Below are positions 8,980 to 36,874 of a DNA stretch of 64,000 bases, in pieces. The stretch spans positions 1,873-65,872 of the forward strand of contig CALBRH010000033.1 of assembly GCA_937899865.1 (NCBI GenBank). The letters are read 5' to 3'. This stretch comes from an uncultured euryarchaeote. Lineage in GTDB: Archaea; Thermoplasmatota; Poseidoniia; Poseidoniales; Poseidoniaceae. Position 1 is the first letter of the stretch; the number at the start of each line of letters is the position of its first letter. Both the position numbers and the translations under genes were made by a program. The notes below the pieces were generated by a model. It was not told the DNA's origin. It did not search any database and was given only the letters and a program-made list of their open reading frames with translations.

Positions 8980-9000
8980 CTACCCAATTGTAGTAATTTT

Positions 9001-12000
9001 ATGGTAGAGAAAAGGGGTTCTAAGAAAGGCGGACCACGCAAGTATTTCTCTACCCTTTACTATTCAAATCAAGAATCAAGAACTTCACTACCAACTGCTG
9101 AGGAGCAAGCAGAATTGGCAAAACTAACAACCGATTATGAGGGTACAAGATATCAAGTTCCGGCTGGTATGCATGATGTTCGAGATGCGAGGAAATTGTT
9201 CAAAGAAATTGATGAAGACTATGATGCTAATGCTGCCAATAAAGATGATATTCGATGGAATAGGGAACATTCCTTAGACAATAAAAATAGTGACTATGAC
9301 TATCGTTTTTGGTTACAATATCAGAGCGAAGAAATCTCTGCAGGCAATCGATCCATGCAATTGATGAAGAGCCGAAGCAAAGAATTTCGAGATGCGATGA
9401 GTAAACTATCAGATTTAACTGTGGAAGTTGCAGAGAATCTATATTCGATGAGTTATGATGTTGTAAATACTGATTCTAAAACATCTAAACTCCACCCACT
9501 TGCACATCTAATTGAGCTAAACAGACTGATGTTGAAAGAATCAAACACTACTACTAAGGGATTGGGTGAGATTATTTTGCAAAGAACAAAAACATGGAGT
9601 TATGTGATGGACATTAATTTCTCGTTTGAAAAAGACAACGGTGGCAAAAACCTCGAGTATCTTAAAGAAAAGCCACTATTTTACCATCTTGCGAACACTA
9701 TGCTACAGGTTTATTTCAAGTCAATCCGCAAATCCACTAAATTGAGAACATTCAAAAATAACGACGAGTTAATCGAAGCACTCAATGAACTTGGTTATGA
9801 AGATACTGAAGGCAAGGCTAAAAAGGAACTTAAACAAGAGTTGAAAGAACAATTATTGATAACAAGCGATAAAGATTTAACCAATAAAAATTACAAAATC
9901 ACATATGTATGTGAAACCAATTCTTTCTTTAGGAAACTTCACAAAAAAATCGGTAAAGTTTTGTCTAAATGGACGGGATATTACACTATATTACCAGGTA
10001 AGAAAGATCCTTTTTTTGAACAGTTAAAGCATGTGTTAGACTATCCAGTAAACGAATTTTTGACAGTTGATTTCATTACTCCTGCGCTGGAAAAGTTCCG
10101 TAGAACGTGCATAAAAACTGCTGCAAGTTGTTTATTTAGCGCACAGCTGGCAGGTTACATCAATTTCGATTCTGCATCAGTAGATGAATTAGATTCTCTT
10201 TACGATTCAGAGTATGAAGGCTCTAATACCTCTTATCCAAATGTGGTTCGAATGTCAAAGAAATTGCTGAATGATTTGAATCAAGGTGACCATGCTATAA
10301 TCAGACATTTCCAGATGGACAGAAAGCGTAACATGTATTGTCTGCCAAAATCGCATGTTAGACAATCAGACGAAGAAAGGCAAAGTTCCGCAAAAAGCAG
10401 TAAGGGCAATGGAGGTTTTTTGCATAATGATAGTATGACTGTATCTATACATCCTGCATTAACCAACCTGATCGAGGAAGGCAGTTTAACTCACACAAGA
10501 TTCGAACCCTCTGAAGATACAATTAATGCTCTAAATATCTTACAAAAAACCCAATGGTCGATAAATTTAGATTTTCTTGATTTCATTGCTTATTTTACCT
10601 ATGAAGGAGAAAAAATTACACCATATCCAGAAGATATTCGCCAAGTTGCCTGGCAACGTTCAGACAATATGATGTTAAGAGATATATTCATTGAAAGAAT
10701 GGGTTTACGGAGTAGCGATACTTCAATGGAATCTCGTTTCCGTGACATTAAATTTATTCTCAAACAAGCAAGAAAAAATCTACTTAATGCAGGCAACATT
10801 TTTTGGCACCCATGGTTTTGTGATTGGCGTGGTAGGTTTAACACTAAAGTAAACGAATTAAGCCCTCAGGGCGACGACCTATCAAAAGCAATGCTATTGT
10901 TTGCTAAATGGAAGCCATTAGGAGAGAGAGGACGATATTGGCTCTATGTAAGAGCATATGAATTATTAAGGAAAATACCTAAAATTAACGATGGCTTTCC
11001 TAAGTTAGATGCATTCGATAGACAAGTCGAGTGGGTTGAGGAAAGGTTAGATAAGATCATAAAGTATGGCAAAAAATTGAATCGAAAAACCTCTGAAATT
11101 GAGCTTGAGAAGTTATTACAGGATTTGAAAGTGGATAAGCCGAAACCAAAGTCGGAAATTTTTCAACGAATTGCATTCCTCATTGAATTTGTCAGAATTC
11201 ACGAAGTTTACGACAAAGAGAAAGATTGGGATAAGGTGAAATCTGGCTTACCTATACACTTGGATGCCTCATGTAATGGCTTTCAGCACATTGCTGCATT
11301 AACCCGATTAACCCGAAATGAAGAATTAGCGGAAGATGAATTAGAAAAAAAAGAAGAATTAGCAAAAGAGGTCAATCTGCTAAACAAAAGTACTCTTGCT
11401 AAAGGAGATTTGTACAAAGAGGTTGCAGTGATTGCAAAGAACAATCTGGATGAAGACTTCGTCGAGGCAAAACAAATCAAAAAACTAATTGATGACCTTG
11501 AGTTGAATGAGAACTCAAGAAACGCCCTAGAGGAAAAAATATTTTCCAGGGAATTCTGCAAACCATTAGTAATTCTTGCAGGATACGGAGCTAGAGATTT
11601 ACATTCAACTATCATGAATTTCAATGGCAAAAAATTACGCGGTGGCAGGTACAAGCCAAAGAAAGGAAGTAAGTCTGAAGTAACATTACACTTAGAATCA
11701 GAATTATATCAAGTAATTGAGGAACTTGCTAAAGAATATCCCGGCGAATTTGACAAATTAGTGTTAAAGAAACAGAATGAGGACAAGGAATATTTAATTC
11801 CAGTAGAAAATTGCAAACTAGCCCACCGCTTTGGCCTAGATTTGTCGCATTATATTCACAAGTGTATAGTCAAAGCAACCCATAATACATTAGGTGAAAT
11901 AAAGGAGAAATTGAAGGAAATATATTCCAATATTGATACACTAGGCATCAAAACTGAAACGGATTTGCAACAATTAGACGCTATGACTCATAAAGGCCTA

Positions 12001-12990
12001 GGTAAACTGTTGCAGAGTAACAATAAGCCATTTAGTAAATTAAACAAAGCGGAAAGGTTAGACTCAGTAAAGGAACTAGTAATTGAAAAATGGAAGAATA
12101 AATTGTATTTCTCTTGGCAAGCCAATGAAACTTCTTCAATAGTTCGTTATATTAAGTGGAAATTGGAAAATGAGCGTGGTATGGCTAAATTGCCAACAGC
12201 AATCCTGCCTAAAGATTACATAGATCCAGGGCCAGAAGAAATCCAAAATTTCATCATTAACAGCCCCGACCTTTCACCCGGTCTTTTGAAAGAATTACTT
12301 GAAGCTCAAGAAAAAGTCCATGAGTCTCGCAAAGAGAAAAAATCTAGTTTAAAATCAAACCCACAGTCTTGGCAGGAAAGAAAATTAACGAGTAGGGTTT
12401 TTATGTGCTTACGCAACATCATATTACGAACTAAAGATGATGAGCATAGAGAGATTGCCAAAAACCATTATTATGCTAGATTTATCGATTTGCCAAAAGG
12501 TCGAATTAAGGAAGGGATTAAGCAGGGCAACCTTTACTCGATAGACACGAGTTACAGTATGAAGTTCAAAACAGATAAGAAAGGTTTGAAGGAGGCAGTC
12601 AACAAATTAAGAGACTTGAGTAGTGATATTGTTTTGGGAATGTTACCTAATTATATCCATTCTTTTGATGCTCTTCACATGCAAAATGTTGTGTTGGAAC
12701 TTGACAAGAAAGGAATACAGGATATTTGGGCGGTTCATGACTCATTTGGTGTTCATGCTTGTGATATCGAGTATTTACGAGATATTGTACGTGAAACTTT
12801 TGTTGAAATTCATCAAGATCCAATTCAGGTTCATTTGAAGCGAATTGTCGAACTGAATAGGTCAATTTTAGAGCCAAAATTTGTCGATAAATACATAGTA
12901 AAAATCGATAAGGAAATTGAGGAAATAAACCGTTCCCCTAATAATGATTGGATAAATAATGTACTGCATTCCAATTACCTAATTTCTTAG
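9001..12990 (+). CDS. T7-like single-subunit DNA-dependent RNA polymerase (~1329 aa)
   Basis: Catalytic and structural motifs align to T7 RNAP. HPWFCDWRGRFN matches T7 YNMDWRGRVY. Motif A is IHLDASCNGFQHIAAL (T7 QDGSCSGIQHFSAM), at 11257-11301. Motif B is REFCKPLVILAGYGA (T7 RSVTKRSVMTLAYGS), at 11548-11592. LPNYIHSFDALHM matches T7 APNFVHSQDGSHL. Motif C is WAVHDSFGVH (T7 LIHDSFGT), at 12727-12756. Start set at M29 (9001) rather than the track start at 8917. Confidence 0.92.
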   Translation: MVEKRGSKKGGPRKYFSTLYYSNQESRTSLPTAEEQAELAKLTTDYEGTRYQVPAGMHDVRDARKLFKEIDEDYDANAANKDDIRWNREHSLDNKNSDYDYRFWLQYQSEEISAGNRSMQLMKSRSKEFRDAMSKLSDLTVEVAENLYSMSYDVVNTDSKTSKLHPLAHLIELNRLMLKESNTTTKGLGEIILQRTKTWSYVMDINFSFEKDNGGKNLEYLKEKPLFYHLANTMLQVYFKSIRKSTKLRTFKNNDELIEALNELGYEDTEGKAKKELKQELKEQLLITSDKDLTNKNYKITYVCETNSFFRKLHKKIGKVLSKWTGYYTILPGKKDPFFEQLKHVLDYPVNEFLTVDFITPALEKFRRTCIKTAASCLFSAQLAGYINFDSASVDELDSLYDSEYEGSNTSYPNVVRMSKKLLNDLNQGDHAIIRHFQMDRKRNMYCLPKSHVRQSDEERQSSAKSSKGNGGFLHNDSMTVSIHPALTNLIEEGSLTHTRFEPSEDTINALNILQKTQWSINLDFLDFIAYFTYEGEKITPYPEDIRQVAWQRSDNMMLRDIFIERMGLRSSDTSMESRFRDIKFILKQARKNLLNAGNIFWHPWFCDWRGRFNTKVNELSPQGDDLSKAMLLFAKWKPLGERGRYWLYVRAYELLRKIPKINDGFPKLDAFDRQVEWVEERLDKIIKYGKKLNRKTSEIELEKLLQDLKVDKPKPKSEIFQRIAFLIEFVRIHEVYDKEKDWDKVKSGLPIHLDASCNGFQHIAALTRLTRNEELAEDELEKKEELAKEVNLLNKSTLAKGDLYKEVAVIAKNNLDEDFVEAKQIKKLIDDLELNENSRNALEEKIFSREFCKPLVILAGYGARDLHSTIMNFNGKKLRGGRYKPKKGSKSEVTLHLESELYQVIEELAKEYPGEFDKLVLKKQNEDKEYLIPVENCKLAHRFGLDLSHYIHKCIVKATHNTLGEIKEKLKEIYSNIDTLGIKTETDLQQLDAMTHKGLGKLLQSNNKPFSKLNKAERLDSVKELVIEKWKNKLYFSWQANETSSIVRYIKWKLENERGMAKLPTAILPKDYIDPGPEEIQNFIINSPDLSPGLLKELLEAQEKVHESRKEKKSSLKSNPQSWQERKLTSRVFMCLRNIILRTKDDEHREIAKNHYYARFIDLPKGRIKEGIKQGNLYSIDTSYSMKFKTDKKGLKEAVNKLRDLSSDIVLGMLPNYIHSFDALHMQNVVLELDKKGIQDIWAVHDSFGVHACDIEYLRDIVRETFVEIHQDPIQVHLKRIVELNRSILEPKFVDKYIVKIDKEIEEINRSPNNDWINNVLHSNYLIS

Positions 12991-12991
12991 T

Positions 12992-13016
12992 CAATTCCTA
13001 TACTATAGGTTAGGAG
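12992..13016 (+). promoter_or_regulatory. Phage-type (T7/SP6/K11-like) promoter candidate P1
   Basis: Sequence caaTTCCTATACTATAGGTTaggag lies 2 nt after the ssRNAP stop and 76 nt before the paralog-1 ATG. It shares the consensus AWTCCYAYACTAKAGGTT with P2 and P3. The core ACTATAGG is identical to the T7 promoter -7..+2. Confidence 0.55.
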
Positions 13017-13091: not shown

Positions 13092-14390
13092 ATGAATAGT
13101 ATAACTAAATCAGTAAGTTGTGATAGTTGTGGTAATGACATCACGGTTCTTAATATTGGTAAAGATCCAGAATTACCGTTGTGTTTAATATGCACGCCAT
13201 GGGTGAATAATTCTCTAGACTATAGTCCTCATAAAATCGCAGGCGTAACCATAGATGATTTAGAATTATTCAGGAAATATCGTTCAATTACCAAGGGAAT
13301 TAATATTCCTAATGACGATTATAGTTGGAACTTATTCATCTGTGCGATAGTTAAGGCTAATGGTGATAATAACCTACTTGAAGAGGTACAGCAAGATTAT
13401 CAAACTAGATTAAAAATCCATCCAGAGCTTAGAGATTTCCTGACAATATCCTGGTCTGAAATACCTGAGAATGATGTGCTGAGAAAGACTTATTCTGATG
13501 TTGATATTGTAAATGATATCATCTCGGTATTCAAATCATATGAAATAGAGCAAGAGTATTTGGTAGCATTGTATGAATGTAGCCAGAAATATGAAAAGTA
13601 TCTTTCCACCTTAGGTAAATATGATTCCCAACCGGCAAACAGTTCATATTTTGCAGATTTTGAAACAGCAAAAAAGAATTTAGAAGGGAAATTGTACAAA
13701 ATACAATCGATTACAATTCCTGGCAAAATTATTGGTGATGCGTTGAGAATTGAGACAAACTGTATTTCTCGAGAATTTATTATCCAATTACTATATGATT
13801 ATGTCAAAAGCGACCAATCATACTCGTTCAATGATGCTTTGAATAACGTTACAAAATCAGTCACTTTACTTGACAAACTAATGGATCATCATGCCAATTT
13901 GCCATTCAAAAGATATCCAAACTCGCCTTTGGTTTTGGAAATTCTTAGCAAAATAATCAGTGGAGAGTACTGCAAAAACTCACAATACTCATTATTATCG
14001 GTCATAGCAAATAACAACGATTGTTATGACCAATCATGTAATTACTATCATAGAGATCGTAAAATATGGCAGAAATCATTTCAGTTATTAGAAGGGGTTA
14101 TCAGAACGTTAACAATTTCAAATGTTATAATTTGTAATGATGGACTAAAAGTTAGAGGCAAAAGCGGTAGATGGTATCTAGTGGAGCCAAGAGAAGGTAC
14201 CCCTATTTCCCAAAATGATGACTTTGTTGTAACTACTCTTGATGAAGGAGACAATGTTTGTATTCACATGAGATATCCATTTCGAGATATGCCGCTCGGC
14301 GACCAGTTAGCTTCTCTAGTGATGACTTTGTATAATGACAAAGTATTATTTGATAAAATTGATGTTCGTATTGACCCTTACTACTACTGA
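13092..14390 (+). CDS. Zinc-ribbon protein, island paralog 1 (~432 aa), unknown function
   Basis: N-terminal CDSC...x20...CLIC ribbon. The C-terminal block is shared with paralog 2: SFQLLxGxI, GxSGRWYxxEP, NxxCI, MPxGDQLASxVxTLxND. Start set at 13092, directly after the GGAGGTGA Shine-Dalgarno site. Confidence 0.75.
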   Translation: MNSITKSVSCDSCGNDITVLNIGKDPELPLCLICTPWVNNSLDYSPHKIAGVTIDDLELFRKYRSITKGINIPNDDYSWNLFICAIVKANGDNNLLEEVQQDYQTRLKIHPELRDFLTISWSEIPENDVLRKTYSDVDIVNDIISVFKSYEIEQEYLVALYECSQKYEKYLSTLGKYDSQPANSSYFADFETAKKNLEGKLYKIQSITIPGKIIGDALRIETNCISREFIIQLLYDYVKSDQSYSFNDALNNVTKSVTLLDKLMDHHANLPFKRYPNSPLVLEILSKIISGEYCKNSQYSLLSVIANNNDCYDQSCNYYHRDRKIWQKSFQLLEGVIRTLTISNVIICNDGLKVRGKSGRWYLVEPREGTPISQNDDFVVTTLDEGDNVCIHMRYPFRDMPLGDQLASLVMTLYNDKVLFDKIDVRIDPYYY

Positions 14391-14528
14391 ACTAAATTTC
14401 ATTTAGTAAATATTTGATTCAATCTTTTATGACTTTATTCAGATATTGTTGCAAATAATTTTCATGAAACAAACCCTATTTGCAAAACCAAAACGGCCCA
14501 CTGAACCAACACAAACTGTCAATAATTA

Positions 14529-14550
14529 CAATTCCCACACTAGAGGTTCG
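14529..14550 (+). promoter_or_regulatory. Phage-type promoter candidate P2
   Basis: Sequence caaTTCCCACACTAGAGGTTcg lies in the 277-nt spacer between the two paralogs. Confidence 0.5.
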
Positions 14551-14641
14551 CCACTACCAATATTTCAACACAACAATGTTCCATGTTCATCTCAACCAAA
14601 TAGCGTTTAGATATACCGCTTGAAAAATATCAAGTGCGGTG

Positions 14642-14664
14642 AAAATCCTACACTAGAGGTTACG
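14642..14664 (+). promoter_or_regulatory. Phage-type promoter candidate P3 (overlaps the paralog-2 Shine-Dalgarno site)
   Basis: Sequence aaaATCCTACACTAGAGGTTacg ends 4 nt before the ATG at 14668. GAGGT could also act as a ribosome-binding site, so the call is ambiguous. Confidence 0.45.
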
Positions 14665-14667
14665 AAA

Positions 14668-15975
14668 ATGTCTGAAAATATTATGAGAACAAATTGTGAA
14701 AGTTGTAAGACCAAACTAGCAACTGTAGATTTATCACAAGAACCCGACTTAATTTTGTGTGAGTTGTGTAAGCCATGGGTATTACATTCAATATATCAAG
14801 TGCCTAAGTCAGTAATTGGTATTGCGATCAAAGATCCTGAAATGTTTAGACATGGTCTAAAATTGATGGAAGGGTTTACCGAACCCGAACATGAGCGTGA
14901 CTGGTTGACTCTTCTGTGTCACATATTTTCAAAAAAAATATACGATGAAGAAACGTACGTGTCGACTTTAGGTACAGACATGGTAAATTCCCTTAGACAA
15001 GACTATGGTAACAGATGGAAGATATACGATGATGAAGCACTTGAGATGTTTGATATGTCCAAAAAAGTGGATTGCATTGAACCCGAAGCACTCGAACATA
15101 TTGAGTTTGAACATTGGGCTAATGATTTAACATTTCATTCAGAGTTTATCTCCGAGATGAAAGAAATACTCACCTTTTACCTAGATAGACGCAAAGAAAA
15201 CCAAGAGCACCAAGATTCACTCAAAGCATCTGGCTGGGGAGACTATGTAAAACTTCTAAACTTCAATGACGATGAACCGAAAATCTACAAAATTAATCAT
15301 CGTTTTGAAATTACGACCGAGCAAATTTACAAGGTTCTAGACTGGGCTGAAAAATATGATATTAGCTACGATTTCGTCCTCCAATTATTCTTTGATTGGG
15401 CGACATCTCATGCTCATAGTACAATCGATGGTTTGTTGTATGAAGCTAATATATATGCGCCTAAAATTCGTTTGGCATCATTCAAACATATGCCCAATTC
15501 GACGGAATTGTGTCGCCAAATTTATTGTTTGGCTAAAGGATATCATGGGCAAAATTTGCAATATCTCATACTTGCAGCAATACATCGATGGGGTCAGCAA
15601 CTATCGCCTTCACACCATTTTCTAGTTAGAGATGAAGAGGTTTGGTCTCGTTCATTTCAACTGCTAAGAGGCATTATTGAATCATTGGGTAGTAAACGAG
15701 CCAGAATTGATGTCGGACTAATCAAAATTAAAGGTGAGAGTGGTAGATGGTATGGAATTGAACCTGCAACATACAAGACAGATCTCCAACATTGGCAGGT
15801 AACTTCACTACCTAAAGGAAATTACATTTGTATTGATATTCAAGAACAGCATCTGAAAATGCCGATTGGTGACCAATTAGCATCAGTAGTTCTTACACTA
15901 GCCAACGACATTCTAATGGAACAAGAAGTACACACTTTACGACCTGAAAATTTTGGAAGAATACTACGACAATGA
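14668..15975 (+). CDS. Zinc-ribbon protein, island paralog 2 (~435 aa), unknown function
   Basis: N-terminal CESC...CELC ribbon and the same C-terminal blocks as paralog 1 (GESGRWYGIEP, GNYICIDIQ, MPIGDQLASVVLTLAND). Start moved from 14620 to M17, because motif P3 lies inside the longer ORF. Confidence 0.75.
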   Translation: MSENIMRTNCESCKTKLATVDLSQEPDLILCELCKPWVLHSIYQVPKSVIGIAIKDPEMFRHGLKLMEGFTEPEHERDWLTLLCHIFSKKIYDEETYVSTLGTDMVNSLRQDYGNRWKIYDDEALEMFDMSKKVDCIEPEALEHIEFEHWANDLTFHSEFISEMKEILTFYLDRRKENQEHQDSLKASGWGDYVKLLNFNDDEPKIYKINHRFEITTEQIYKVLDWAEKYDISYDFVLQLFFDWATSHAHSTIDGLLYEANIYAPKIRLASFKHMPNSTELCRQIYCLAKGYHGQNLQYLILAAIHRWGQQLSPSHHFLVRDEEVWSRSFQLLRGIIESLGSKRARIDVGLIKIKGESGRWYGIEPATYKTDLQHWQVTSLPKGNYICIDIQEQHLKMPIGDQLASVVLTLANDILMEQEVHTLRPENFGRILRQ

Positions 15976-16037: not shown

Positions 16038-16331
16038 ATGGAGGAAAATATAATGAAAAAAATAAGCAAGAAAACAGAGCAAGCAAACCAAGATGAGGGT
16101 AAACTCATCAAAGTAGAAGTGGCTGACCCAGCCCATGGGCATCAAACTTTGATGCTAAAACCTAAGGAGACTCAAGAATATTTGAGCACTCAATCTGACA
16201 AATGGATATTTGTCGACAACGAATTTACTCAAATTGAGAATCTATCCTTGGTCAACTGGAATACCACTGATACTGTTAGAGTCCTGCCAGGTTTAGTTGG
16301 AGGAATGATTAACAATGAGTATCGAAGATAA
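16038..16331 (+). CDS. Ubiquitin-like (ThiS/MoaD/SAMP-type beta-grasp) protein precursor with an internal diglycine
   Basis: The C-terminal region FVDNEFTQIENLSLVNWNTTDTVRVLPGLVGG-MINNEYRR has the ThiS/MoaD pattern (xVNxxxV...DxVxxxPxxxGG). The GG codons are at 16299-16304 and are followed by an 8-residue tail. The ORF overlaps the E1 gene by 17 nt. An alternative start is at 16053, after a GGAGG site. Confidence 0.7.
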   Translation: MEENIMKKISKKTEQANQDEGKLIKVEVADPAHGHQTLMLKPKETQEYLSTQSDKWIFVDNEFTQIENLSLVNWNTTDTVRVLPGLVGGMINNEYRR

Positions 16332-16971
16332 GTCGGACAAAATAAAAATTCTAGTCGTTGGACTTGGTGGCATTGGTTCGCAATTAACTGAATTAATTGT
16401 TCCAGCCTTAGACATAAGCGGCCTTAATGTTGAGTTGAACTTGATGGATGGGGATGTAGTTGAGAATAATAACCTCGCACATCAGAGGTTTTCTAGCGAA
16501 GATGAAAACAGTCCTAAAGTCGAAGTACTTCAGCAAAGGTACCAACGATATGAACACGTTAAGACAATAGCATACAATAACAACTTGACCACACAATCGC
16601 AATTGGAAGGTTATGACATCATCGTTGTTGCAGTCGATCGGCAAGAACCACGTAATCTAGTACACAAGAGTGACGCACACTGGGTAGACATGAGATGTCA
16701 AGGGGATGGTTGGTTACTAATCGATAGCGATACCAACAAAAGCATTCTCGACAAGATTCCCAACAACAAACAACCAGTCGGTTGTCAACTACCTGGCGCT
16801 ATTGAAAGTGGCAACATAGAGTTTGGATTTGCCGCAGTGGCAGCACTTGGTGCTCAGTGGGTTATGCAGAAACTAAGGATAATCAATGGACATCAATCAA
16901 GGACGCCCAAATTCAGCATGGGATATCTAACCCATGGGCAAATGAAGACATCAGTATTGGAGGAGATTTGA
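16315..16971 (+). CDS. Minimal E1-like adenylyltransferase (ThiF/MoeB/UBA family, 218 aa)
   Basis: Rossmann loop ILVVGLGGIGSQL, then MDGDVVENNNLAHQRF (the ThiF xDxDxVxxSNLxRQ motif), then IIVVAVDRQEPRNLV (the Mg/ATP aspartate and arginine). Confidence 0.8.
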   Translation: MSIEDKSDKIKILVVGLGGIGSQLTELIVPALDISGLNVELNLMDGDVVENNNLAHQRFSSEDENSPKVEVLQQRYQRYEHVKTIAYNNNLTTQSQLEGYDIIVVAVDRQEPRNLVHKSDAHWVDMRCQGDGWLLIDSDTNKSILDKIPNNKQPVGCQLPGAIESGNIEFGFAAVAALGAQWVMQKLRIINGHQSRTPKFSMGYLTHGQMKTSVLEEI

Positions 16972-17550
16972 ATGGATATTAACTTCTTCAAAGAAATACC
17001 AGAGCCTGTAATTGACGTCGAATCAGAATCCAGTATAGATTTTGTAATTAATTTGGCAAAAAAATGTAATTGGAATTTGATTTACCTGCTGAGTAAATGT
17101 GTCTCTAGAGAAGTGTCAATACTTGTCGATAGCAAAGACAACTACTTTGTTGATTGGGGGACGATTGGCAGCGTTGAATTAAGTCCACCAGTAGGTGCTG
17201 TATTACCATTCAAACTGTGGGTTCACACCCACCCCTCGAACACAGCTTACTGGAGTATTACCGATCGAAACACCCTTGAGATCGCCAAAGGTATACTCGA
17301 TAAAGCCTTAGTTCTAGGTGAAAACGGTCTACTTTCAACAATACTTCAGCCGATAAGTTCATCCACCGATGACACTGTAAATTCTAATCTACGGTGGACG
17401 GAGGAAGAGGTGATGGATTGGTTGGAATACAATCTAAACCACTTGGATTACGATTTTACAGATGATTTGTATTCTCCAGATTTCAAATTTAGATGGGATG
17501 GAAGGAAAGTATTCACTGATAATTTTGGTAGTGATGGAAAGGATTGGTAA
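16972..17550 (+). CDS. JAB/MPN (JAMM) metalloisopeptidase
   Basis: An exact JAMM signature H-x-H-x7-S-x2-D: VHTHPSNTAYWSITD (17224-17265). Its start abuts the E1 stop (TGAATG). Confidence 0.85.
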   Translation: MDINFFKEIPEPVIDVESESSIDFVINLAKKCNWNLIYLLSKCVSREVSILVDSKDNYFVDWGTIGSVELSPPVGAVLPFKLWVHTHPSNTAYWSITDRNTLEIAKGILDKALVLGENGLLSTILQPISSSTDDTVNSNLRWTEEEVMDWLEYNLNHLDYDFTDDLYSPDFKFRWDGRKVFTDNFGSDGKDW

Positions 17551-17625: not shown

Positions 17626-17859
17626 GTGAGAAAAATGAAAGAAAATAAAGATAACAAAGAAGAAAAAGAAAACAAAAATCATACAGATATGAAAGAATTT
17701 ATGTCAGCTTTGTACAAGTTGATAATTGCTCAAACTGAGAGTTTAGAATTAGAATCCAAATTAAACAAGCAATTCATGAAGGATCGTGGAATTGGTGCTA
17801 AAGCGGAATTTGATTCTAAGCAGGATTGGCCTGATGAATTTTCAGAGGAGTGGGGCTAA
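17626..17859 (+). CDS. Small acidic helical protein (74-77 aa), unknown function
   Basis: The ORF has a GGTGAG Shine-Dalgarno site, then a GTG at 17626 or an ATG at 17635. It has a K/E/N-rich N-terminus. No motif recognised. Confidence 0.4.
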   Translation: MRKMKENKDNKEEKENKNHTDMKEFMSALYKLIIAQTESLELESKLNKQFMKDRGIGAKAEFDSKQDWPDEFSEEWG

Positions 17860-17950
17860 TTATCACAAATATGTGTAAACGTAGCACACTATTGGCGTTT
17901 GAACAGGTGCAAGACCTGTATAATATTGATAAGAATAGGAGAATGAAAAA

Positions 17951-19348
17951 ATGAGTAAAGAAGAAGAAACAAATGGAATAATAGAGCAAAGAGAAGGTGA
18001 GGAAAACAACGATACTAAATTCACAATCAACAGTCCGATTGGAGACGTTTCAGTCGATATGCTAGAGTATGAGGCAGCAAAGAAAATTGCGAAAAAGCAG
18101 GTTAATCCACCAGAATTAAGTCTACTAACCCAAAAGGCACAGAAGTTCCTTGGTGGGCAAGAAGAAACCGATTTTATATATTTTAGACCGAGATTAGGTT
18201 CTCTAATCAAACTACACATTGATGACGAGTTCGATGACTATGAGGTAGTGAAAGAATTTTATTTACACGGTGGCATAGAAATACCCGCCATTTATTCAAA
18301 CACTGAAGTTGATAATTCTGAAAAGAAAAGATTCCTCCAAATAGGTGTTAGATTTTATGAAAACGAAACGGAGAAATTTGTTGTTGTATGTACAGTGGAT
18401 GATTATGACAACGATGAGCGAATCACTATTATGACAACAGAAGAGGGTAGAGGATTGGAACTTCTCCAAAGACTTGAGGATGGTTTCTATGCCAGAGGTG
18501 TACTAAAGAATGCCTTCTTTGATATGGAATACAATTTTATTTCAAGAAATGAAATGGTTGATACCTTGATTGCTTGGAATGACGATATCAAAAAGCAACT
18601 CGATAAGGATGTCATAGAGTTCTTGAAAATAATGCCGCTGCTAAAACAAAAAGGGCTGCCTAATTCACGTGGAATTATCTTGTCAGGTCCACCAGGTACA
18701 GGAAAGACAATGATGGCTAAATCACTGGCTGCTCAAGCAAATGTCACAACCATACTAATTTCAGCTGAGATGATTCAGGGGCCTAGTCAAGTCAAAAGGG
18801 CGTTCAAATTAGGTAGAAAGTTAGCGCCGACCTTGATGATTATCGAAGATATAGATACTGCAGGAACGGTAAGTCGAAGATTTACCGATCACCCAATTTT
18901 GGGTGAGTATCTTCAAGCAATGGATGGCATGGAATCCAATGATGGTATGCTGATTTTAGCAACCACCAACCACACTGAGAACATTGACCCAGCGATTTCT
19001 GACCGACCAGGTAGATTTGACAGGATTATCGATGTTCCACTACCAAACGTCAAGCAGAGAGAACTTATGATACAGAATTTGCTTACCAATATGCCATCTG
19101 AAGATATGCCCAAATCGGTTATTTCTGAAGTCGCTAAGAAGAGTGAAGGTTTGTCTGGTGCTTGGCTGCGAGAAGTAATCCAATGTTCACTGATAGAGGC
19201 TATCTATGAGGGTAAGGAGCAGATAGGCGTCAAGAATCTTGAGGATGGGCTTGTCGATGTTCTAAAGCGAAGAGGCATGGCTTATCAACCAACACCAAAT
19301 CTAGCAGGATTATATGACTCAAGGAAAGCCGACGTCTACACTATGTGA
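17951..19348 (+). CDS. Classic-clade AAA ATPase (Cdc48/FtsH/proteasomal-ATPase-like single AAA module) with a unique ~230-aa N-domain
   Basis: Walker A is GPPGTGKT (18686-18709). Walker B is LMIIEDID. Sensor 1 is ATTN. The second region of homology and Arg finger are DPAISDRPGRFDR. Confidence 0.9.
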   Translation: MSKEEETNGIIEQREGEENNDTKFTINSPIGDVSVDMLEYEAAKKIAKKQVNPPELSLLTQKAQKFLGGQEETDFIYFRPRLGSLIKLHIDDEFDDYEVVKEFYLHGGIEIPAIYSNTEVDNSEKKRFLQIGVRFYENETEKFVVVCTVDDYDNDERITIMTTEEGRGLELLQRLEDGFYARGVLKNAFFDMEYNFISRNEMVDTLIAWNDDIKKQLDKDVIEFLKIMPLLKQKGLPNSRGIILSGPPGTGKTMMAKSLAAQANVTTILISAEMIQGPSQVKRAFKLGRKLAPTLMIIEDIDTAGTVSRRFTDHPILGEYLQAMDGMESNDGMLILATTNHTENIDPAISDRPGRFDRIIDVPLPNVKQRELMIQNLLTNMPSEDMPKSVISEVAKKSEGLSGAWLREVIQCSLIEAIYEGKEQIGVKNLEDGLVDVLKRRGMAYQPTPNLAGLYDSRKADVYTM

Positions 19349-19376
19349 TTTCAATAGATTATACTACAATTCCAAC

Positions 19377-19392
19377 TTCCTTTATAAAGGAA
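19377..19392. repeat. Perfect 16-nt palindrome TTCCTTTATAAAGGAA between convergent genes
   Basis: Read directly from the sequence. It lies 29 nt after the AAA stop and 32 nt after the stop of the minus-strand gene. It could be a bidirectional terminator hairpin or an operator. Confidence 0.6.
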
Positions 19393-19423
19393 CTAAGAAG
19401 AGATGTCTCAGCAATCTTTGCTA

Positions 19424-19990
19424 CTAACTTCTACTGGTTTTGTGAAGCCAAACCAACTCAACTAACCTAGCAAGACAAGGCGCCCACATGCGCTTAAAAA
19501 CCAAATGATTGACAAGTCCGGATTCTATGGATATTAGTTCCTGTTTTAGCTCATTTATCGCAAGTGATAAATTCGGCATTACTAAGGTAATATCCTGCTT
19601 TTTACCAGATTTGTAATCTATATTTTGCAACAATATCTGGCATAATTTACTATATTCCATATTGAATAATAGCATAATTTCACGGCGTAACAGGTGCCTA
19701 ATTCCACTAGCAGGGCGACCTCGAGACTTATCTCGTCTGCCATGGGGGCCAGTTTTACTCAAGATAGCATTTACAACTTCTCGATCTAATCTCAATGTAT
19801 GCCTATTATTATGCTTAATTGATTCCCATAATTTAGTGTGTACTAAACCGAGATGACCTTTGCTTTGCTTAACATAATTGAGCCTTTTTTCAGGCATATC
19901 AGAATCGTCAAAAATTAACCTGTGTTGCACGATTCTAAGGTCGGCAAGAATAGGTTTGAGGTCCATGTTATAACGTATTGGTGGCCACAA
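19424..19990 (-). CDS. Basic hypothetical protein (188 aa), the only minus-strand gene in the island
   Basis: An ORF with Arg/Lys/His-rich stretches (GPHGRRDKSRGRPASGIRHLLRRE). No motif recognised. It is divergent from the 20162 operon. Confidence 0.5.
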   Translation of the reverse strand: MWPPIRYNMDLKPILADLRIVQHRLIFDDSDMPEKRLNYVKQSKGHLGLVHTKLWESIKHNNRHTLRLDREVVNAILSKTGPHGRRDKSRGRPASGIRHLLRREIMLLFNMEYSKLCQILLQNIDYKSGKKQDITLVMPNLSLAINELKQELISIESGLVNHLVFKRMWAPCLARLVELVWLHKTSRS

Positions 19991-20161
19991 ATAAACCCTT
20001 CGAAAACCGATGCTTTATTCGCTTTAAAAAATTAGACTTTGCCGCAGTGTTTTGGTTTAGTCTATGGTTGGTTAAGTAGTATGAAATTGTAATTAAGCGC
20101 GAAGAAGGGTGCAGCTGAGTGCAGCCCAAAAAATAAGAAAAAAACAAAAAGAGATGATAAT

Positions 20162-20575
20162 ATGAAACAAGAAACAGAAAAAAAACAAGAAAACAAGAAA
20201 ACAGAACAAAAGACGCGTTGGTATGACGAAGACTTACCCTCATTGATTGAGGTGGATTTACAGACCAGCTTGTCCCATAACGCTAGAAAGTGGGCACTAG
20301 ATTTTTCCAACCCTGAACATATTGGGGAGTATACATGGAACGAGTTCTGTGGCTTATTGCTGCAGAATGCCGGAGATTACCGAGTAAGATGTATTTTAGC
20401 GATTGATTGCTTTGATGCAAAGATTGGTTTGTCGATGTATAAAACAACATTTAACGCGATTGGAGTAGAGCTTGAACTAGGGGAGTTCACTATAGTTGCC
20501 CCTGACAGACGTGAAGACCAAGCCGCTTCCGAAGAGGTAAAAGTTGCAGAAGCACCTGGCATGGAGGTGGTCTGA
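20162..20575 (+). CDS. Hypothetical protein (137 aa), first gene of a translationally coupled operon
   Basis: The ORF has a K/E/Q-rich N-terminus. Its stop overlaps the next start (ATGA at 20573-20577). Confidence 0.55.
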   Translation: MKQETEKKQENKKTEQKTRWYDEDLPSLIEVDLQTSLSHNARKWALDFSNPEHIGEYTWNEFCGLLLQNAGDYRVRCILAIDCFDAKIGLSMYKTTFNAIGVELELGEFTIVAPDRREDQAASEEVKVAEAPGMEVV

Positions 20576-20748
20576 TGTGCCCATATACAAGTCCTCAAGC
20601 CATTGCATTTTGGAGTAAAGCTTGTAACTTCTGTCGTGGTTCAGACCTGAACCATAAGTGTGGCAACCCTGCTGCTTGCAAACGAACTTTAGACAAAGCA
20701 AAGTCTGCAGAAGCAAGTCACCTTTTATTTGTAGAGGAGTGGCAGTAA
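20575..20748 (+). CDS. Unlisted small Cys-rich protein (57 aa)
   Basis: Own translation: MCPYTSPQAIAFWSKACNFCRGSDLNHKCGNPAACKRTLDKAKSAEASHLLFVEEWQ. It is below the track length cutoff. It has an ATGA overlap upstream and a TAATG overlap downstream, so it fills the gap exactly. Confidence 0.45.
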   Translation: MCPYTSPQAIAFWSKACNFCRGSDLNHKCGNPAACKRTLDKAKSAEASHLLFVEEWQ

Positions 20749-21071
20749 TGTGGGTATTTACCTCAACAGGTATGCTTTCTGTTGTTGCTCATAGGGATCT
20801 GAAAGGGTCCTTACTTGTTAGAGCTAGAAGTCCTTTCCACATTCGGGAAATGTTTCCATACGCTGCAGTAGAGCAGACTCCTAATGCTGACTATCCATTT
20901 AGGGCAATAATTGAGCGTGAAACATTTGCTAATGTCATGTTAGACTACTCACTTAACATTGACTATGACAATTTCAAGAATAGTATTGAGGAAAAGAACT
21001 TCCAAGAACACTGTCTTGAGGTTTGGGCAACCATGCGCCGATATGGCTTAAACTGGGGGAGTTTTGAATGA
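20748..21071 (+). CDS. Hypothetical protein (107 aa)
   Basis: Start moved to MWVFTSTGMLSVVAHRD..., which couples to the small-ORF stop. The stop overlaps the next start at 21068. Confidence 0.55.
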   Translation: MWVFTSTGMLSVVAHRDLKGSLLVRARSPFHIREMFPYAAVEQTPNADYPFRAIIERETFANVMLDYSLNIDYDNFKNSIEEKNFQEHCLEVWATMRRYGLNWGSFE

Positions 21072-21691
21072 GCAGAAATTATCGTAATAGTCGTTCTCAT
21101 AAACTGAAAATAACCTGGATACCAATATGGTACGACAAGAAGACTGCAGGTCATATTGGGATGACATTTTGCCCTGGTAAAGTCCAGCCTTGGTCAATGA
21201 CCGGTGGATGGCATAGAGATCTTGATTTGGACATTAGAGAACTGAAGAAGGCTAATGTTGGTCATGTAATTTCACTGATTACTAAGGATGAAATGGAAGA
21301 GTTAAGAGTCAAAAATTTGGGTAAAAAATTACAATCCAATCGTATAGAATGGTATCATGCACCAACTCCGGATGAAGAAGTTCCAGATAACATGTGGTTT
21401 ATCAGATCATTATCGATAATAAAACAGGTTATGCCAAATTTCTACAGAGGCAAACGCGTTGTTGTTCACTGTAAAGGTGGAATAAGTCGAGCAGGTGTCT
21501 TTACTTGTATTGTAATATGGTTGTTGTCAGGATTTGATATGACTAGCGCAATTTCAATGGTAAGAGAAATGCGGGACCCTCGCGGCATAAATGAAGGCCA
21601 AGAGCAGTTTTTACTTGATTATGAGAAAAATTGGCAGACTTGGATTCAAAATAACACCGTAGCTGATGAATGGTTGGAGGAGATGGCATGA
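21068..21691 (+). CDS. Cys-based dual-specificity/tyrosine protein phosphatase
   Basis: P-loop VVHCKGGISRAG (the HCx5R signature, ~21466-21495), with an upstream PTPDEEVP general-acid region. Confidence 0.8.
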   Translation: MSRNYRNSRSHKLKITWIPIWYDKKTAGHIGMTFCPGKVQPWSMTGGWHRDLDLDIRELKKANVGHVISLITKDEMEELRVKNLGKKLQSNRIEWYHAPTPDEEVPDNMWFIRSLSIIKQVMPNFYRGKRVVVHCKGGISRAGVFTCIVIWLLSGFDMTSAISMVREMRDPRGINEGQEQFLLDYEKNWQTWIQNNTVADEWLEEMA

Positions 21692-22524
21692 GGGATATAG
21701 AATTAGAAATGAAATTACAGAAATCATTGAATGAAGGCAACAATGTATGGGTTGTTGGCGATGTTCATGGGTTTAATCTAACACTAAGGGAACTTGTTTC
21801 AAAACTTGAAATAAAGACAGGTGATTATGTTGTGTTACTTGGAGATTTGATTGACCGTGGACCTGATTCATATGATGTAATTCAATTTGTCAAGAACTCG
21901 CCAAACATGACTACAGTAAAGGGCAATCATGAGAAAATGATGGCGAAAGTATTCTCAGTTTCTCGTCTTGAGAAACCAGACTTACGTATTTCAACATGGT
22001 TCTATAATGGCGGCTTAGCAACTGCAACATCTTACATCAATGCATATACTGATTCTAGTGGCAATGAGAATACACAAGAACTTCATCAAGCGATTGAGCG
22101 AGATAAATTGTGGATCGAACAATTACCGAGTCAAATTGTGTTAGATGATTGGCGACTGGTCCATGCAGGATATGATCCAAACGTGGATTTAGATTGTCAT
22201 ACAGACAGTGAATTGTTACATGTTAGGAAACCCTTCCATCGAGCAAAAGAGCCAATAGACATACATCGAACAATACTTTTTGGCCATTCAATTACCATAA
22301 CTTTACCTGGAATGAGTAAAGAAAATTGGGGCGATCCATGGTTTTCATCAATTAGGTTGGAAGATGGTAGACCTGCTGCAATAGGGCTAGACACTTGCGT
22401 GTTTCATACTGCAGACAGTCCAGCAATGCTGACGGCTTACAATTTGCAAGATGGCAGGTTTGTTCAGCAACTCAGAGTTGAACCATGGAATAAGCGAGCA
22501 ATAAACAAAGCAAATAATGTATAG
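21688..22524 (+). CDS. PPP-family metallophosphoesterase (lambda-phosphatase / PrpA / ApaH-like Ser/Thr phosphatase)
   Basis: Motifs GDVHG, GDLIDRGPDS, GNHE, HAG and GH occur in canonical order. Start set at the ATGA overlap with the upstream stop. Confidence 0.85.
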   Translation: MRDIELEMKLQKSLNEGNNVWVVGDVHGFNLTLRELVSKLEIKTGDYVVLLGDLIDRGPDSYDVIQFVKNSPNMTTVKGNHEKMMAKVFSVSRLEKPDLRISTWFYNGGLATATSYINAYTDSSGNENTQELHQAIERDKLWIEQLPSQIVLDDWRLVHAGYDPNVDLDCHTDSELLHVRKPFHRAKEPIDIHRTILFGHSITITLPGMSKENWGDPWFSSIRLEDGRPAAIGLDTCVFHTADSPAMLTAYNLQDGRFVQQLRVEPWNKRAINKANNV

Positions 22525-23162: not shown

Positions 23163-24287
23163 ATGAGCATTGAAGTGCATATTTTGGGGACCTCTTCGGC
23201 ACGCCCAACAAGCATTCGCCAAGTTAGCGGCAGTTTGATTTCTTGCCAAGATGGTATCGCGATAGTTGATGCTGGAGAAGGTTTTCAATCAAGATTCGCA
23301 ATTCAAAGAAAGCGCATGAAAACCTATGAAACATATAACTTGAAATCAAGTAAAGTTAGCGTATTATGTTTGACACATGGCCATCTAGATCATACTTGGG
23401 GTGTTCTTCCATGGTTACAATCAATGGCATTAGACAATCGTAATCAACCATTGTTAGTTCTTGGCCCAACAACTAATGAGGTAATCGATTCCTTGCTTGA
23501 AAATCAATCTTTACCAGATGAAACCCCTGCTTCAGACTTGGCAGTTCAATACCAATTCTGGCACAAACTTGGCGGAATATCAAGTAACCTTGGCTATCCT
23601 GTAAAATGGGTATTGGGTGCGGTAAATGAGGGGCGCTGGATTGAATTTACTGATAGTGGCGAGGTAATTGAGTTGTCAGAGATGCCTCAGCCGGAAGGTT
23701 GGCGACATAATAGAATTGAAGCACTGCCTACTATTCACACAATTCCATCTTGTGCTTGGAAACTTTCCACAGCAAAGAAAAAAGGTAAATTCAATCGTCA
23801 AAGAGCAATAGAACTTGGGTTGAGTGAAGATGAAACTGCGACTCTTGCTGCTGGTAAAGATCTACAACATAAGGGAGATTTATTGCTAAGTAAGGATTTC
23901 CGAGGTAGTGAAATCGAATCACTTTCTATCATAATTTCAGGTGATACATCTGAGATGGCACCAGGAATCACGTCATTGGATGGATGCGATTTGTTAGTTC
24001 ATGAAGCCACGTTCCTTGATGATTTTAGTCAACATGCAGATGATTACCTCCATAGCACCGCATCGGGTGCAGCTCGTACTGCTATTGCTTGTGGAGCCAA
24101 ACATTTGGTTTTGACACATTATGGTGCGAGAATAAAACAAACAGATGAATCATTGAATGAAGCAAAAGTAGTGCTGGCAGATTCACAAACTACTCTAAGT
24201 GCTGCATGTGATGGAGATCGAATACTAATCGAGAACCCCAATGAAATAACTCATCTATATTGGCGTAATGATGGTTGGATTCGTTGA
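23163..24287 (+). CDS. rnz: Metallo-beta-lactamase-fold ribonuclease, RNase Z-like
   Basis: Motifs ILGTSSARPT, DAGEG, LTHGHLDHTWG, SGDT, LVHEATF, HST and LVLTHY. It carries an insertion relative to short RNase Z. Probably housekeeping. Confidence 0.75.
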   Translation: MSIEVHILGTSSARPTSIRQVSGSLISCQDGIAIVDAGEGFQSRFAIQRKRMKTYETYNLKSSKVSVLCLTHGHLDHTWGVLPWLQSMALDNRNQPLLVLGPTTNEVIDSLLENQSLPDETPASDLAVQYQFWHKLGGISSNLGYPVKWVLGAVNEGRWIEFTDSGEVIELSEMPQPEGWRHNRIEALPTIHTIPSCAWKLSTAKKKGKFNRQRAIELGLSEDETATLAAGKDLQHKGDLLLSKDFRGSEIESLSIIISGDTSEMAPGITSLDGCDLLVHEATFLDDFSQHADDYLHSTASGAARTAIACGAKHLVLTHYGARIKQTDESLNEAKVVLADSQTTLSAACDGDRILIENPNEITHLYWRNDGWIR

Positions 24288-24333
24288 TTCATCAAAGCGT
24301 TCATTTGAAGTGTATGGCACACTACAGCGAGTT

Positions 24334-31555: not shown

Positions 31556-31559
31556 TATT

Positions 31560-32159
31560 ATGGTTGAAGAGGAAAATGGTGTCATTGTTAATGATGAGGG
31601 AGAACTCCTCATACATGAGGACACTATTGTAGAAACAACTCAAATGTCTGCTGAAGATTTGGCAATTCTCCAAGCATCAAAAGACGCTGCGGAATTTGTT
31701 AAAGAATTACAGAAAGAAATAACTCCAAATCGAGTTGCAACAGCTGGCCTAATTCTTCTATTGTTAATGGGAGCAATCTTCTGTACTTGGTATTGGGTGA
31801 TTCCGAGAGATTCAGTGATGGTAGAAACATTGTACATGCAAAGAAGTGGGCATTTGGTTATGTCAGAAATTCATAATACAGGTAGTAGAGAAATTACTGA
31901 TGTTGAAATTCAGGTGTCTTTCCAATCTTTGGATGGAGAAGTCCTCGAAACAATGGGTATCGAAGTAGAATCTATTTCCGCGCACTCTTCAATAGCGGGT
32001 GATGATTTAGAAATGTTAATTGCCGGTTATACAGTTTGGGATAATTATGTCATTGCTATCGACTTAAAATATACTGATCATCGTGGTGATTTACAAATCA
32101 TGTTGGTAACTCATGAAGTAGGTGATTGGGCTTGGGAAGAGTTCAATGATAGAAATTGA
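31560..32159 (+). CDS. Single-pass membrane protein
   Basis: Start moved to the ATG 5 nt after the upstream stop. TM helix ATAGLILLLLMGAIFCTWYWVI. Confidence 0.5.
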   Translation: MVEEENGVIVNDEGELLIHEDTIVETTQMSAEDLAILQASKDAAEFVKELQKEITPNRVATAGLILLLLMGAIFCTWYWVIPRDSVMVETLYMQRSGHLVMSEIHNTGSREITDVEIQVSFQSLDGEVLETMGIEVESISAHSSIAGDDLEMLIAGYTVWDNYVIAIDLKYTDHRGDLQIMLVTHEVGDWAWEEFNDRN

Positions 32160-32215
32160 GCAAATTCTCACACAATACCCCAAGCAATAAAACGCACCGG
32201 AACTAGGACTTAATT

Positions 32216-36805: not shown

Positions 36806-36874
36806 TTATTTTTTGTTAAAATAACATAAACATGAAAGGATAGGCTTTTGATACTAAGTCGTTCACCCCTAAAC

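Follow-up and report, generated by a model that had tools for sequence, protein, structure and literature searches.

Gene neighborhoods that combine a ubiquitin-like protein (Ubl), an E1 and a JAB protease are known from prokaryotes (Iyer, Burroughs and Aravind 2006; PMC1779556). Bacterial Bil and Bub systems have an E2 of their own (10.1101/2023.09.04.556158; PMC11601596), and conjugation of an archaeal Ubl (SAMP) was already known at a time when neither an E2 nor an E3 had been detected in archaea (PMC2948915). Here, we describe a 64,000-nucleotide stretch of DNA from an uncultured archaeon of the Poseidoniaceae (assembly GCA_937899865.1, contig CALBRH010000033.1, positions 1,873 to 65,872), hereafter the window, in which two tandem genes that we call par1 and par2 lie between a gene for a T7-like single-subunit RNA polymerase (ssRNAP) and genes for a Ubl, an E1 and a JAB protease. 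In the surface ocean, Poseidoniales rank among the most abundant archaea and, to our knowledge, no member of the order has been cultured. A literature search returned no mention of an ssRNAP or a Ubl cassette in Poseidoniales. The sequences of par1 and par2 indicate that they are members of an undescribed protein family with a C4 zinc ribbon, a middle region that is helical and variable, and a conserved C-terminal domain of alpha/beta type with an invariant cysteine, and we tentatively suggest that this cysteine takes part in Ubl transfer or targeting.

The Ubl-E1-JAB triad itself is a known kind of system. Like the prokaryotic Ubl-E1-JAB neighborhoods and the SAMP/UbaA/JAMM system, the cassette has a beta-grasp-type Ubl with a Gly-Gly motif and a removable tail, a ThiF-type E1 and a JAMM protease, and, as in SAMPylation, no E2 can be recognized. 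Unlike these systems, it has its own T7-like polymerase with matching putative promoters and a Cys-domain family as a constant fourth component; its E1 is minimal, with neither a zinc site nor a rhodanese domain, and some versions have two Ubl domains fused to the E1. The constant invariant-Cys component, a T7-type polymerase and putative promoters dedicated to the cassette within an archaeal chromosome, and the Ubl-Ubl-E1 fusion are new variants of this kind of system.

Three other groups of described systems invite comparison. UBC-fold E2s, including those of the Bil, Bub and CBASS-Cap2 operons, are likewise encoded beside Ubl, E1 and JAB genes, and they have one invariant Cys between a strand meander and a long helix, within a similar G..[IV]C[IL][DH] motif. 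The par proteins differ in having no significant profile or fold match to E2s, no HPN motif and a Cys directly after the last strand, and in that their domain sits at the C-terminus of a 430-aa zinc-ribbon protein with one to three copies per cassette, in archaea and only in Poseidoniales-type metagenome-assembled genomes (MAGs). With the early regions of T7-like phages, the window shares a PF00940 polymerase and putative promoters directly downstream of the polymerase gene, whose core, ACACTA[TG]AGG, is almost identical to that of the SP6, K11 and T7 promoters. In contrast to those regions, the window lies in an archaeal chromosome among core metabolic genes, has no counterpart in IMG/VR or GenBank phages, holds three promoter copies only and carries a Ubl system as cargo rather than virion or replication genes. 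Finally, TFIIB/TFB-type factors also begin with a C-x2-C-x(n)-C-x2-C ribbon that precedes a helical region, and proteins with TFIIB-type ribbons neighbor the par genes in two versions of the cassette. The par ribbons, however, do not match PF08271 at E<=0.1 and read C-x2-C-x-PW(V) instead of C-x2-CG-x-V, and no cyclin repeats were detected.

Results

The par proteins and their family

BLASTP aligns par1 and par2 over their full length with 28% identity (E 2e-43), which bears out the tandem paralogy of two ~435-aa proteins that a preliminary description of this DNA, made from its letters and open reading frames, had proposed. The ribbons are 29% identical, the middle regions 19.5% and the C-terminal domains 39.6%. 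All of the shared blocks quoted in that description were found in both proteins: IWQKSFQLLEGVI in par1 and VWSRSFQLLRGII in par2, KVRGKSGRWYLVEP and KIKGESGRWYGIEP, GDNVCIHM and GNYICIDI around the Cys, and MPLGDQLASLVMTLYND and MPIGDQLASVVLTLAND. The ribbon followed by PWV is likewise real, with a spacer of 17 residues instead of the 20 first given (C10-x2-C13-x17-C31-x2-C34-(K/T)-PWV). The paralogy and the shared blocks observed here are far beyond chance.

The par1 ORF is open from 13059, and the ATG at 13092 is where its orthologs start aligning, with a GGAGGTG 7 nt 5' of it. Across 24 orthologs of both paralogs, the four ribbon cysteines, PWV and the W..SF helix are unchanged, as are G-x-S..WY, the cysteine of the C-terminal domain (C390 in par1, C388 in par2) and P-x-GDQL. 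Orthologs of par1 are at least 69% identical to it and come from Poseidoniales MAGs only. The par1 slot is empty at loci L001, L004 and L005 and holds a different paralog at L003 (loci are numbered L001 to L028).

Searching 1.84 billion cluster representatives exhaustively with HMMER yielded 105 relatives of the par family, and every named homolog is labeled Candidatus Poseidoniales, Poseidoniaceae, 'Euryarchaeota archaeon' or Methanobacteriota archaeon. The C-terminal domain, ~110 aa, is common to all members, and most full-length members retain an N-terminal C-x2-C-x(8-35)-C-x2-C-x-PW ribbon. Subfamilies comprise proteins of ~430 aa (as in the window's cassette), 520 aa, 360-430 aa in genomes of higher G+C, 740-850 aa with the domain in mid-protein, 259 aa with no ribbon, and 871 aa with both the domain and the ribbon in duplicate. 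The family alignments contain no invariant lysine. No model in Pfam, PHROGs, NCBIfam or PADLOC matched par1, par2 or ten distant relatives, and these scans gave no similarity of the par proteins to toxin, nuclease, protease or other effector families. A sequence search of the PDB with full-length and C-domain profiles returned noise only (the light chain of an antibody, and 'Cake' designed repeat proteins aligned on the G-x-SG strand), a further homolog search with the C-domain profile added 8 short fragments only, and a scan of IMG/VR with four different queries found no relative.

Some members of the family stand outside the cassettes. In many Poseidoniaceae contigs, the 259-aa subfamily lies beside genes for NTP_transf_3 and XdhC, which are molybdenum-cofactor maturation genes, with a ThiF-rhodanese gene 8 kb away; at L018/L019 its gene (8001-8780) is divergent from them. 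The ~740-850-aa subfamily (L009/L010) lies near MCM, GatB and PTH2. Two fragments of a ~740-aa relative, P0173 (107 aa) and P0176 (145 aa), were considered as eukaryotic exons, and this was rejected because what look like introns are frameshifts of nanopore assemblies and the gene context is archaeal. The 871-aa protein, P0116 (L027 2267-4882, also L028), has two Cys domains with a zinc ribbon after each and lies among 16 co-directional, tightly packed ORFs of 34.5% G+C with no Pfam match; a large ORF beside it had no match among GenBank phages. A Marine Group II virus or mobile element may be the source of these contigs.

An invariant cysteine in a domain best described as new

Three residues, namely the Cys and the Asp in each of the motifs 'GD' and 'ND' (residues 402 and 414 in par2), are present in all 71 aligned C-terminal domains, which are cluster representatives at 50% identity and reach down to 22% identity to par2. 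The local pattern is [IVL]-C-[IL], followed most often by His (29), Asp (11) or Glu (7). The preliminary description had named loss of this Cys from orthologs as a sign against an E2-like active site; such loss is not seen, because the residue is invariant far beyond the orthologs.

We modeled the domain with AlphaFold2 (AF2) from an alignment of 50 domain sequences (pLDDT 91.7, pTM 0.84). The model begins with an 18-residue helix and continues with a five-strand meander of two short, two long and one short strand, with the Cys right after the last of these. A loop of ~11 residues then leads to a 13-residue helix that runs from GD to ND, and two more helices follow. This order of helix, strand meander, Cys, loop and helices is also the UBC order, and in all 71 domains the Cys stands where the last strand ends, and the long helix begins 10-17 residues later.

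Foldseek found no match to the model at E<=1e-3 among 350,000 PDB chains. The best matches were to frataxin/CyaY and were not significant (E 0.2-0.4, TM 0.32-0.37). Nine UBC chains, among them UbcH7, Cdc34, Ubc7 and a bacterial E2, fell within the top 50, with E 1.2-2.1, TM 0.30-0.38 and rmsd 6-9 Å; for UbcH7, TM was 0.34-0.38 and E close to 1. A search of BFVD with the same model gave uncharacterized proteins only (E>=0.03), and the full-length model (pLDDT 68) gave nothing usable in Foldseek; its best, non-significant match was the RNAP-bound activator PafBC, and chains of the Pol III pre-initiation complex were also listed. None of 50 C-terminal domains matched UQ_con or Prok-E2 even at E<=10, and neither par1 nor par2 has any Pfam match at E<=0.1. 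When the family was compared by hhalign with a small UBC alignment of four human E2 sequences, the probability was 0.24% (P 0.25), and in the best path of this non-significant alignment the family Cys fell opposite UBE2D2 C85, with the GD helix opposite alpha2. Against CyaY, the hhalign probability was 0.1%. The HPN motif of E2s is also absent from some atypical members of that class.

The preliminary description had seen in this C-terminal block a possible divergent E2 active site. The resemblance in motif and topology is real, but it gains no significant support from Foldseek, profiles or hhalign, and there is no HPN motif. Because the resemblance is statistically unsupported, membership in the UBC superfamily is not shown, and the domain is best described as new. 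Assignments to a WYL, Sm or Tudor barrel or to a frataxin-like fold were also considered, and none had significant support.

Five versions of the cassette

The neighbors of the par genes are as first described, namely an ssRNAP, a Ubl, a ThiF-type E1 and a JAB protease with an intact JAMM motif, with no recognizable E2 (Table 1). The Ubl of the window is homologous to the two Ubl domains fused to the E1 at L020. The E1 matches PF00899 (E 5e-16), its best NCBIfam match is PRTRC_ThiF (5.5e-13, below the cut-off), and its nearest solved structures are MccB (8e-8) and ThiF. The JAB orthologs at L020 and L025 have weak Prok-JAB matches.

Synteny of the Ubl-E1-JAB cassette was found at 20 loci (given as L001-L008, L013, L015-L017 and L020-L026), and the par family is linked to the Ubl system in five diverged versions of it, A, A', B, C and D. 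The constant pair is the par family and the Ubl, whose cores are homologous across the cassettes and end in P-x-L-[VI]-G-G; E1 and JAB join wherever the contig is long enough, which holds for all versions but C. One to three family members per cassette lie directly upstream of Ubl-E1-JAB or interleaved with it, and an ssRNAP is present in three of the five versions. Profile scans recognized no candidate E2 other than the par proteins in any version, and no version has an enzyme that uses a thiocarboxylate for biosynthesis.

Version A (the window, L001-L008 and L016-17) consists of ssRNAP, one or two par genes, Ubl, E1 and JAB. In the Poseidoniaceae these are followed by a small ORF, an AAA+ gene, three ORFs with no known role, and dual-specificity and PPP-type phosphatases, an order that is kept while the polymerase diverges to 46% identity. 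The AAA+ gene is absent from the cassettes at L003 and L005. Version A' (L025/26, 33% G+C) has ssRNAP, further genes, par, Ubl, E1, JAB, a small ORF and AAA. Version B (L020-22, 51% G+C) combines a 780-aa ssRNAP, a 327-aa protein with a TFIIB-type ribbon, a 520-aa par protein, the Ubl-Ubl-E1 fusion and JAB, and its par stop codon overlaps the start of the fusion gene. At L020 (2134-9251; also L021 and L022), the fused Ubl domains end in ..LVPGLVGG and ..IMPQLIGG, and a small ORF follows JAB.

Version C (L011-15, 54-60% G+C) comes from contigs of less than 3 kb only and has a 398-aa TFIIB-ribbon protein, one or two par genes and then Ubl. The ribbon proteins of versions B and C match PF08271 with E 1.7e-4 and 1e-5, respectively, both below the gathering score. 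Two of the version C contigs, from marine metagenomes with 59-60% G+C, are related in an unusual way: L015 (1-2827) has an exact terminal overlap of 77 bp, and L013 (1-2817) is a circular permutation of it. Their unit of ~2.75 kb holds only the genes for the TFIIB-ribbon protein (398 aa), one par-like protein and the Ubl; it represents either a circular element of very small size or a tandem repeat that was collapsed. Two par-like genes are present in the variants L011 and L012. Version D (L023/24, 49% G+C) is ordered par, par, Ubl, a 239-aa C-domain protein with no ribbon, E1 and JAB, and has no ssRNAP within 2.5 kb upstream. At L023 (319-5262; also L024), the three C-domain proteins are 426, 363 and, for the ribbon-less one, 239 aa long, and the Ubl ends in ..ALVGGC.

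Table 1. Features of the par-Ubl cassette, with positions counted from the first nucleotide of the window.
Feature	Position	Strand	Description
T7-like ssRNAP	8917..12990	+	1357-aa ORF; PF00940 E 5.8e-40, phrog_414 E 9e-70; upstream of the par genes
Promoter motif, copy 1	12994..13011	+	ATTCCTATACTATAGGTT; starts 4 nt after the ssRNAP stop, upstream of par1; kept in L001-L005, L016, L017
par1	13092..14390	+	432 aa; C4 zinc ribbon, helical middle, Cys-bearing C-terminal domain; upstream slot is accessory
par1 N-terminal ribbon	13119..13205	+	C10-x2-C13-x17-C31-x2-C34, then PWV; unchanged in 24 sequences
par1 C-terminal domain	14043..14387	+	residues 318-432; invariant Cys390, codon 14259-14261
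Promoter motif, copy 2	14531..14548	+	ATTCCCACACTAGAGGTT; par1-par2 spacer; kept in L002, L016, L017
Promoter motif, copy 3	14644..14661	+	AATCCTACACTAGAGGTT; ends 6 nt before the par2 ATG; kept in L001, L002, L004, L016, L017
par2	14668..15975	+	435 aa; architecture like par1; the paralog always directly upstream of the Ubl gene
par2 N-terminal C4 ribbon	14695..14781	+	followed by PWV
par2 C-terminal domain	15628..15972	+	residues 321-435; invariant Cys388, codon 15829-15831
Ubl	16038..16331	+	97 aa; lysine/glutamate-rich N-terminal leader, core of ~66 aa ending LPGLVGG, 8-residue tail
E1	16315..16971	+	minimal ThiF-type, 218 aa; no rhodanese domain, no CxxC zinc site
JAB/JAMM metalloprotease	16972..17550	+	intact motif HTHPSNTAYWSITD (H-x-H-x7-S-x2-D), read in translation
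77-aa ORF	within 17626-22524		lysine/glutamate-rich N-terminus; part of the conserved cassette
AAA+ ATPase	17951..19348	+	classical (PAN/FtsH/Cdc48-like); PF00004 E 2e-23, NCBIfam matches; kept in this cassette version
Conserved ORF	19424-19990	-	no known role
Conserved ORF	20162-20575		no known role
Conserved ORF	20658-21071		no known role
Dual-specificity phosphatase	21068-21691		
PPP-type phosphatase	21670-22524		

A T7-like polymerase and its putative promoters

The ssRNAP is 25-30% identical to autographivirus RNA polymerases over the catalytic part, and the catalytic T7 motifs HLDASCNGFQH, KPLVILAGYG and VHDSFG are intact in its translation. The promoter-like motif that the preliminary description had noted before each par gene proved to be real and conserved in position. 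Its consensus, [AT]TCC[CT]A[CT]ACTA[GT]AGGTT with the core ACACTATAGG / ACACTAGAGG, occurs three times in the 64 kb, only ahead of par1 and par2, against a chance expectation of 0.2-0.5 copies, and its positions are kept even where the polymerase is only 46% identical. No terminator-like hairpin was found on the + strand between par1 and JAB. The simplest reading of these motifs is that the ssRNAP would specifically drive par1 and par2 and, by read-through, Ubl-E1-JAB. The par genes would then be predicted targets of the ssRNAP and, going by the number of motifs, its first and only direct ones in the window, and nothing appears to require the par proteins as its cofactors.

The chromosomal setting

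Searches of GenBank phages with DNA and protein found no match to the window. The idea that the window is a phage was rejected because 6-phosphogluconate/dihydroxy-acid dehydratase (EDD), glucose-6-phosphate dehydrogenase (G6PD) and the nuo operon flank the cluster, and because an orthologous cluster lies on a 1.1-Mb contig elsewhere. Together with the labels of the homologs, the 1.1-Mb contig shows that the window belongs to the chromosome of a Marine Group IIa archaeon. At L001, L016 and L017, the cassette stands directly downstream of a photolyase gene, and at L001 also upstream of retinal/carotenoid genes; in the window, ORFs with no assigned function and a DUF454 protein precede it (5647-8898). 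These differing flanks place the cassette in different chromosomal neighborhoods. No tRNA gene was found in the window, and no integrase family among the neighboring ORFs scanned. Farther along, a PKD-domain protein (24268-26820) is followed by three very large co-directional ORFs of 1553, 1529 and 1016 aa (26894-39898).

Discussion

Our preferred account is that the par proteins are Cys-dependent components of Ubl transfer or targeting, similar to an E2 or E3 in function and built on a new fold; we put it forward tentatively, as a possibility that falls somewhat short of probable. In such a scheme, the host RNA polymerase would make the ssRNAP, which would fire from the three T7-like promoters to transcribe par1 and par2 and, with no terminator detected, would probably read on into Ubl-E1-JAB. 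JAB would trim the tail of the Ubl to expose its Gly-Gly end, and the E1 would adenylate it. The Cys of the par C-terminal domain may then help to pass the Ubl on, as a thioester carrier or a ligase, in a fold that is not demonstrably UBC, while the variable ribbon, the middle region and the number of paralogs may set the choice of targets. We infer every biochemical step that involves the par proteins. The neighboring AAA+ ATPase fits protein tagging.

Several points weigh against this account. Neither sequence and profile searches nor structure comparison gave the par proteins a significant match to an E2, an E3 or any other enzyme that depends on a Cys, and the 10 residues before the Cys hold no HPN motif or conserved triplet resembling it. 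The exposure of the Cys is read from the sequence pattern: with hydrophobic neighbors on both sides and a polar residue at +2, it would lie on the non-core face of the strand. The Cys and the two Asp residues could equally form a metal site. Up to three family members per cassette would be unusual for E2s, and large subfamilies stand alone in housekeeping neighborhoods with no adjacent Ubl or E1. Additionally, archaeal SAMP systems conjugate without an E2 (PMC2948915), so nothing need be missing from the cassette. This also bears on the preliminary description, which had argued from the invariable E2 of Bil- and Bub-type systems; although these systems do encode one, the argument is weak for an archaeon.

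Other explanations account for parts of the same evidence. If the C-terminal domain genuinely belonged to the UBC/RWD (E2) superfamily, only highly diverged, Cys388/390 would correspond by descent to the catalytic Cys and the MP(L/I)GDQLAS helix to alpha2. The shared order of secondary structure, the likeness of G-x(1-3)-[IV]-C-[IL]-[DH]-[IL] and its helix 10-17 residues on to the G-x-[IV]-C-L-D-I-L...SPA helix of UBC proteins, the hhalign path through these same elements, the nine UBC chains in the Foldseek list and the linkage to E1, Ubl and JAB all speak for this. We nevertheless hold it highly doubtful, given the hhalign probability, the Foldseek scores that frataxin/CyaY equals or betters, the failure of all 50 domains to match UQ_con or Prok-E2, the absence of HPN, and a Cys that follows the last strand immediately, where that of UBC proteins lies ~15 residues past beta4. 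A role in transcription is also quite unlikely, in our judgment, whether as zinc-ribbon factors that govern the specificity, processivity or inhibition of the ssRNAP or as binders of the host RNA polymerase, with the C-terminal domain as a regulatory or sensor module. The conserved C4 ribbon, the location of the par genes immediately downstream of the ssRNAP, with its presumed promoters ahead of them, the TFIIB-type-ribbon proteins immediately upstream in versions B and C, even if PF08271 scores below gathering, and the non-significant matches of the full-length model to PafBC and Pol III chains are consistent with it. The preliminary description had offered such a role as its alternative, and the promoter motif on which that drew is confirmed. 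T7-like RNA polymerases, however, recognize their own promoters unaided, and a factor required at its own promoter would be circular. The par proteins match neither PF08271 nor DNA-binding families, and the invariant Cys of the most conserved domain would be left unexplained. Versions C, seen on contigs of less than 3 kb only, and D keep par with Ubl, and D also with E1-JAB, with no ssRNAP in view, and for this reason we favor a role in the Ubl pathway over one specific to the RNA polymerase.

Within a Ubl pathway, the par proteins might be dedicated substrates of conjugation, or Cys-dependent effectors whose activity or stability would be controlled by attachment of the Ubl, its removal by JAB and the AAA+ unfoldase. 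One to three fast-diverging paralogs with a variable middle suit cargo or effector genes better than a core enzyme, the par genes sit directly under predicted strong and dedicated promoters, stand-alone paralogs occur elsewhere in the genome, and SAMP conjugation needs no E2. We consider this unlikely all the same: the family has no invariant lysine and no match to the effector families scanned, and the Cys/Asp/Asp set would be given no chemistry. Alternatively, the cassette could be a sulfur-carrier system of the ThiS/MoaD/CysO/QbsE type, in which the Cys of the C-terminal domain would carry a persulfide that turns the adenylated Ubl into a thiocarboxylate, or would accept the sulfur. E1-Ubl-JAB triads with no E2 are typical of sulfur transfer, as in Mec+/CysO and QbsCDE, and the E1 here, a minimal adenylase like ThiF or MccB, lacks a rhodanese domain. 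The weak top fold matches to frataxin/CyaY and the 259-aa subfamily beside molybdenum-cofactor genes point the same way. Against these stand a frataxin match that is not significant in Foldseek or hhalign, the absence of a thiocarboxylate-using biosynthetic enzyme from all cassette versions, and the AAA+ unfoldase and tandem Ubl-Ubl-E1 fusions, which point to protein tagging; we therefore think sulfur transfer very improbable.

Our account of Cys-dependent Ubl transfer or targeting extends to a broader proposal, which we regard as somewhat unlikely in its entirety: Marine Group II archaea would have a self-contained Ubl-tagging module with its own T7-type polymerase and promoters, whose transfer or targeting enzyme is a Cys domain unrelated to UBC, a new class of E2/E3 that has expanded into several paralogous subfamilies, one of them on a virus-like contig. 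This pattern would suit a system of virus-host conflict or of stress response. If true, the module would be a fourth prokaryotic machinery of Ubl conjugation after SAMP, Bil/CBASS-Cap2 and Bub, with a transfer component that has no detectable relationship to E2s, and the first chromosomal gene circuit in archaea driven by a T7-like ssRNAP with recognizable T7-type promoters. New, too, would be the protein domain with its single invariant Cys, which has so far been found in this lineage only. The polymerase-promoter pair might become a tool for archaeal genetics, and even if the par proteins are substrates or regulators, the conserved cassette is a testable handle on archaeal Ubl biology and on orthogonal transcription.

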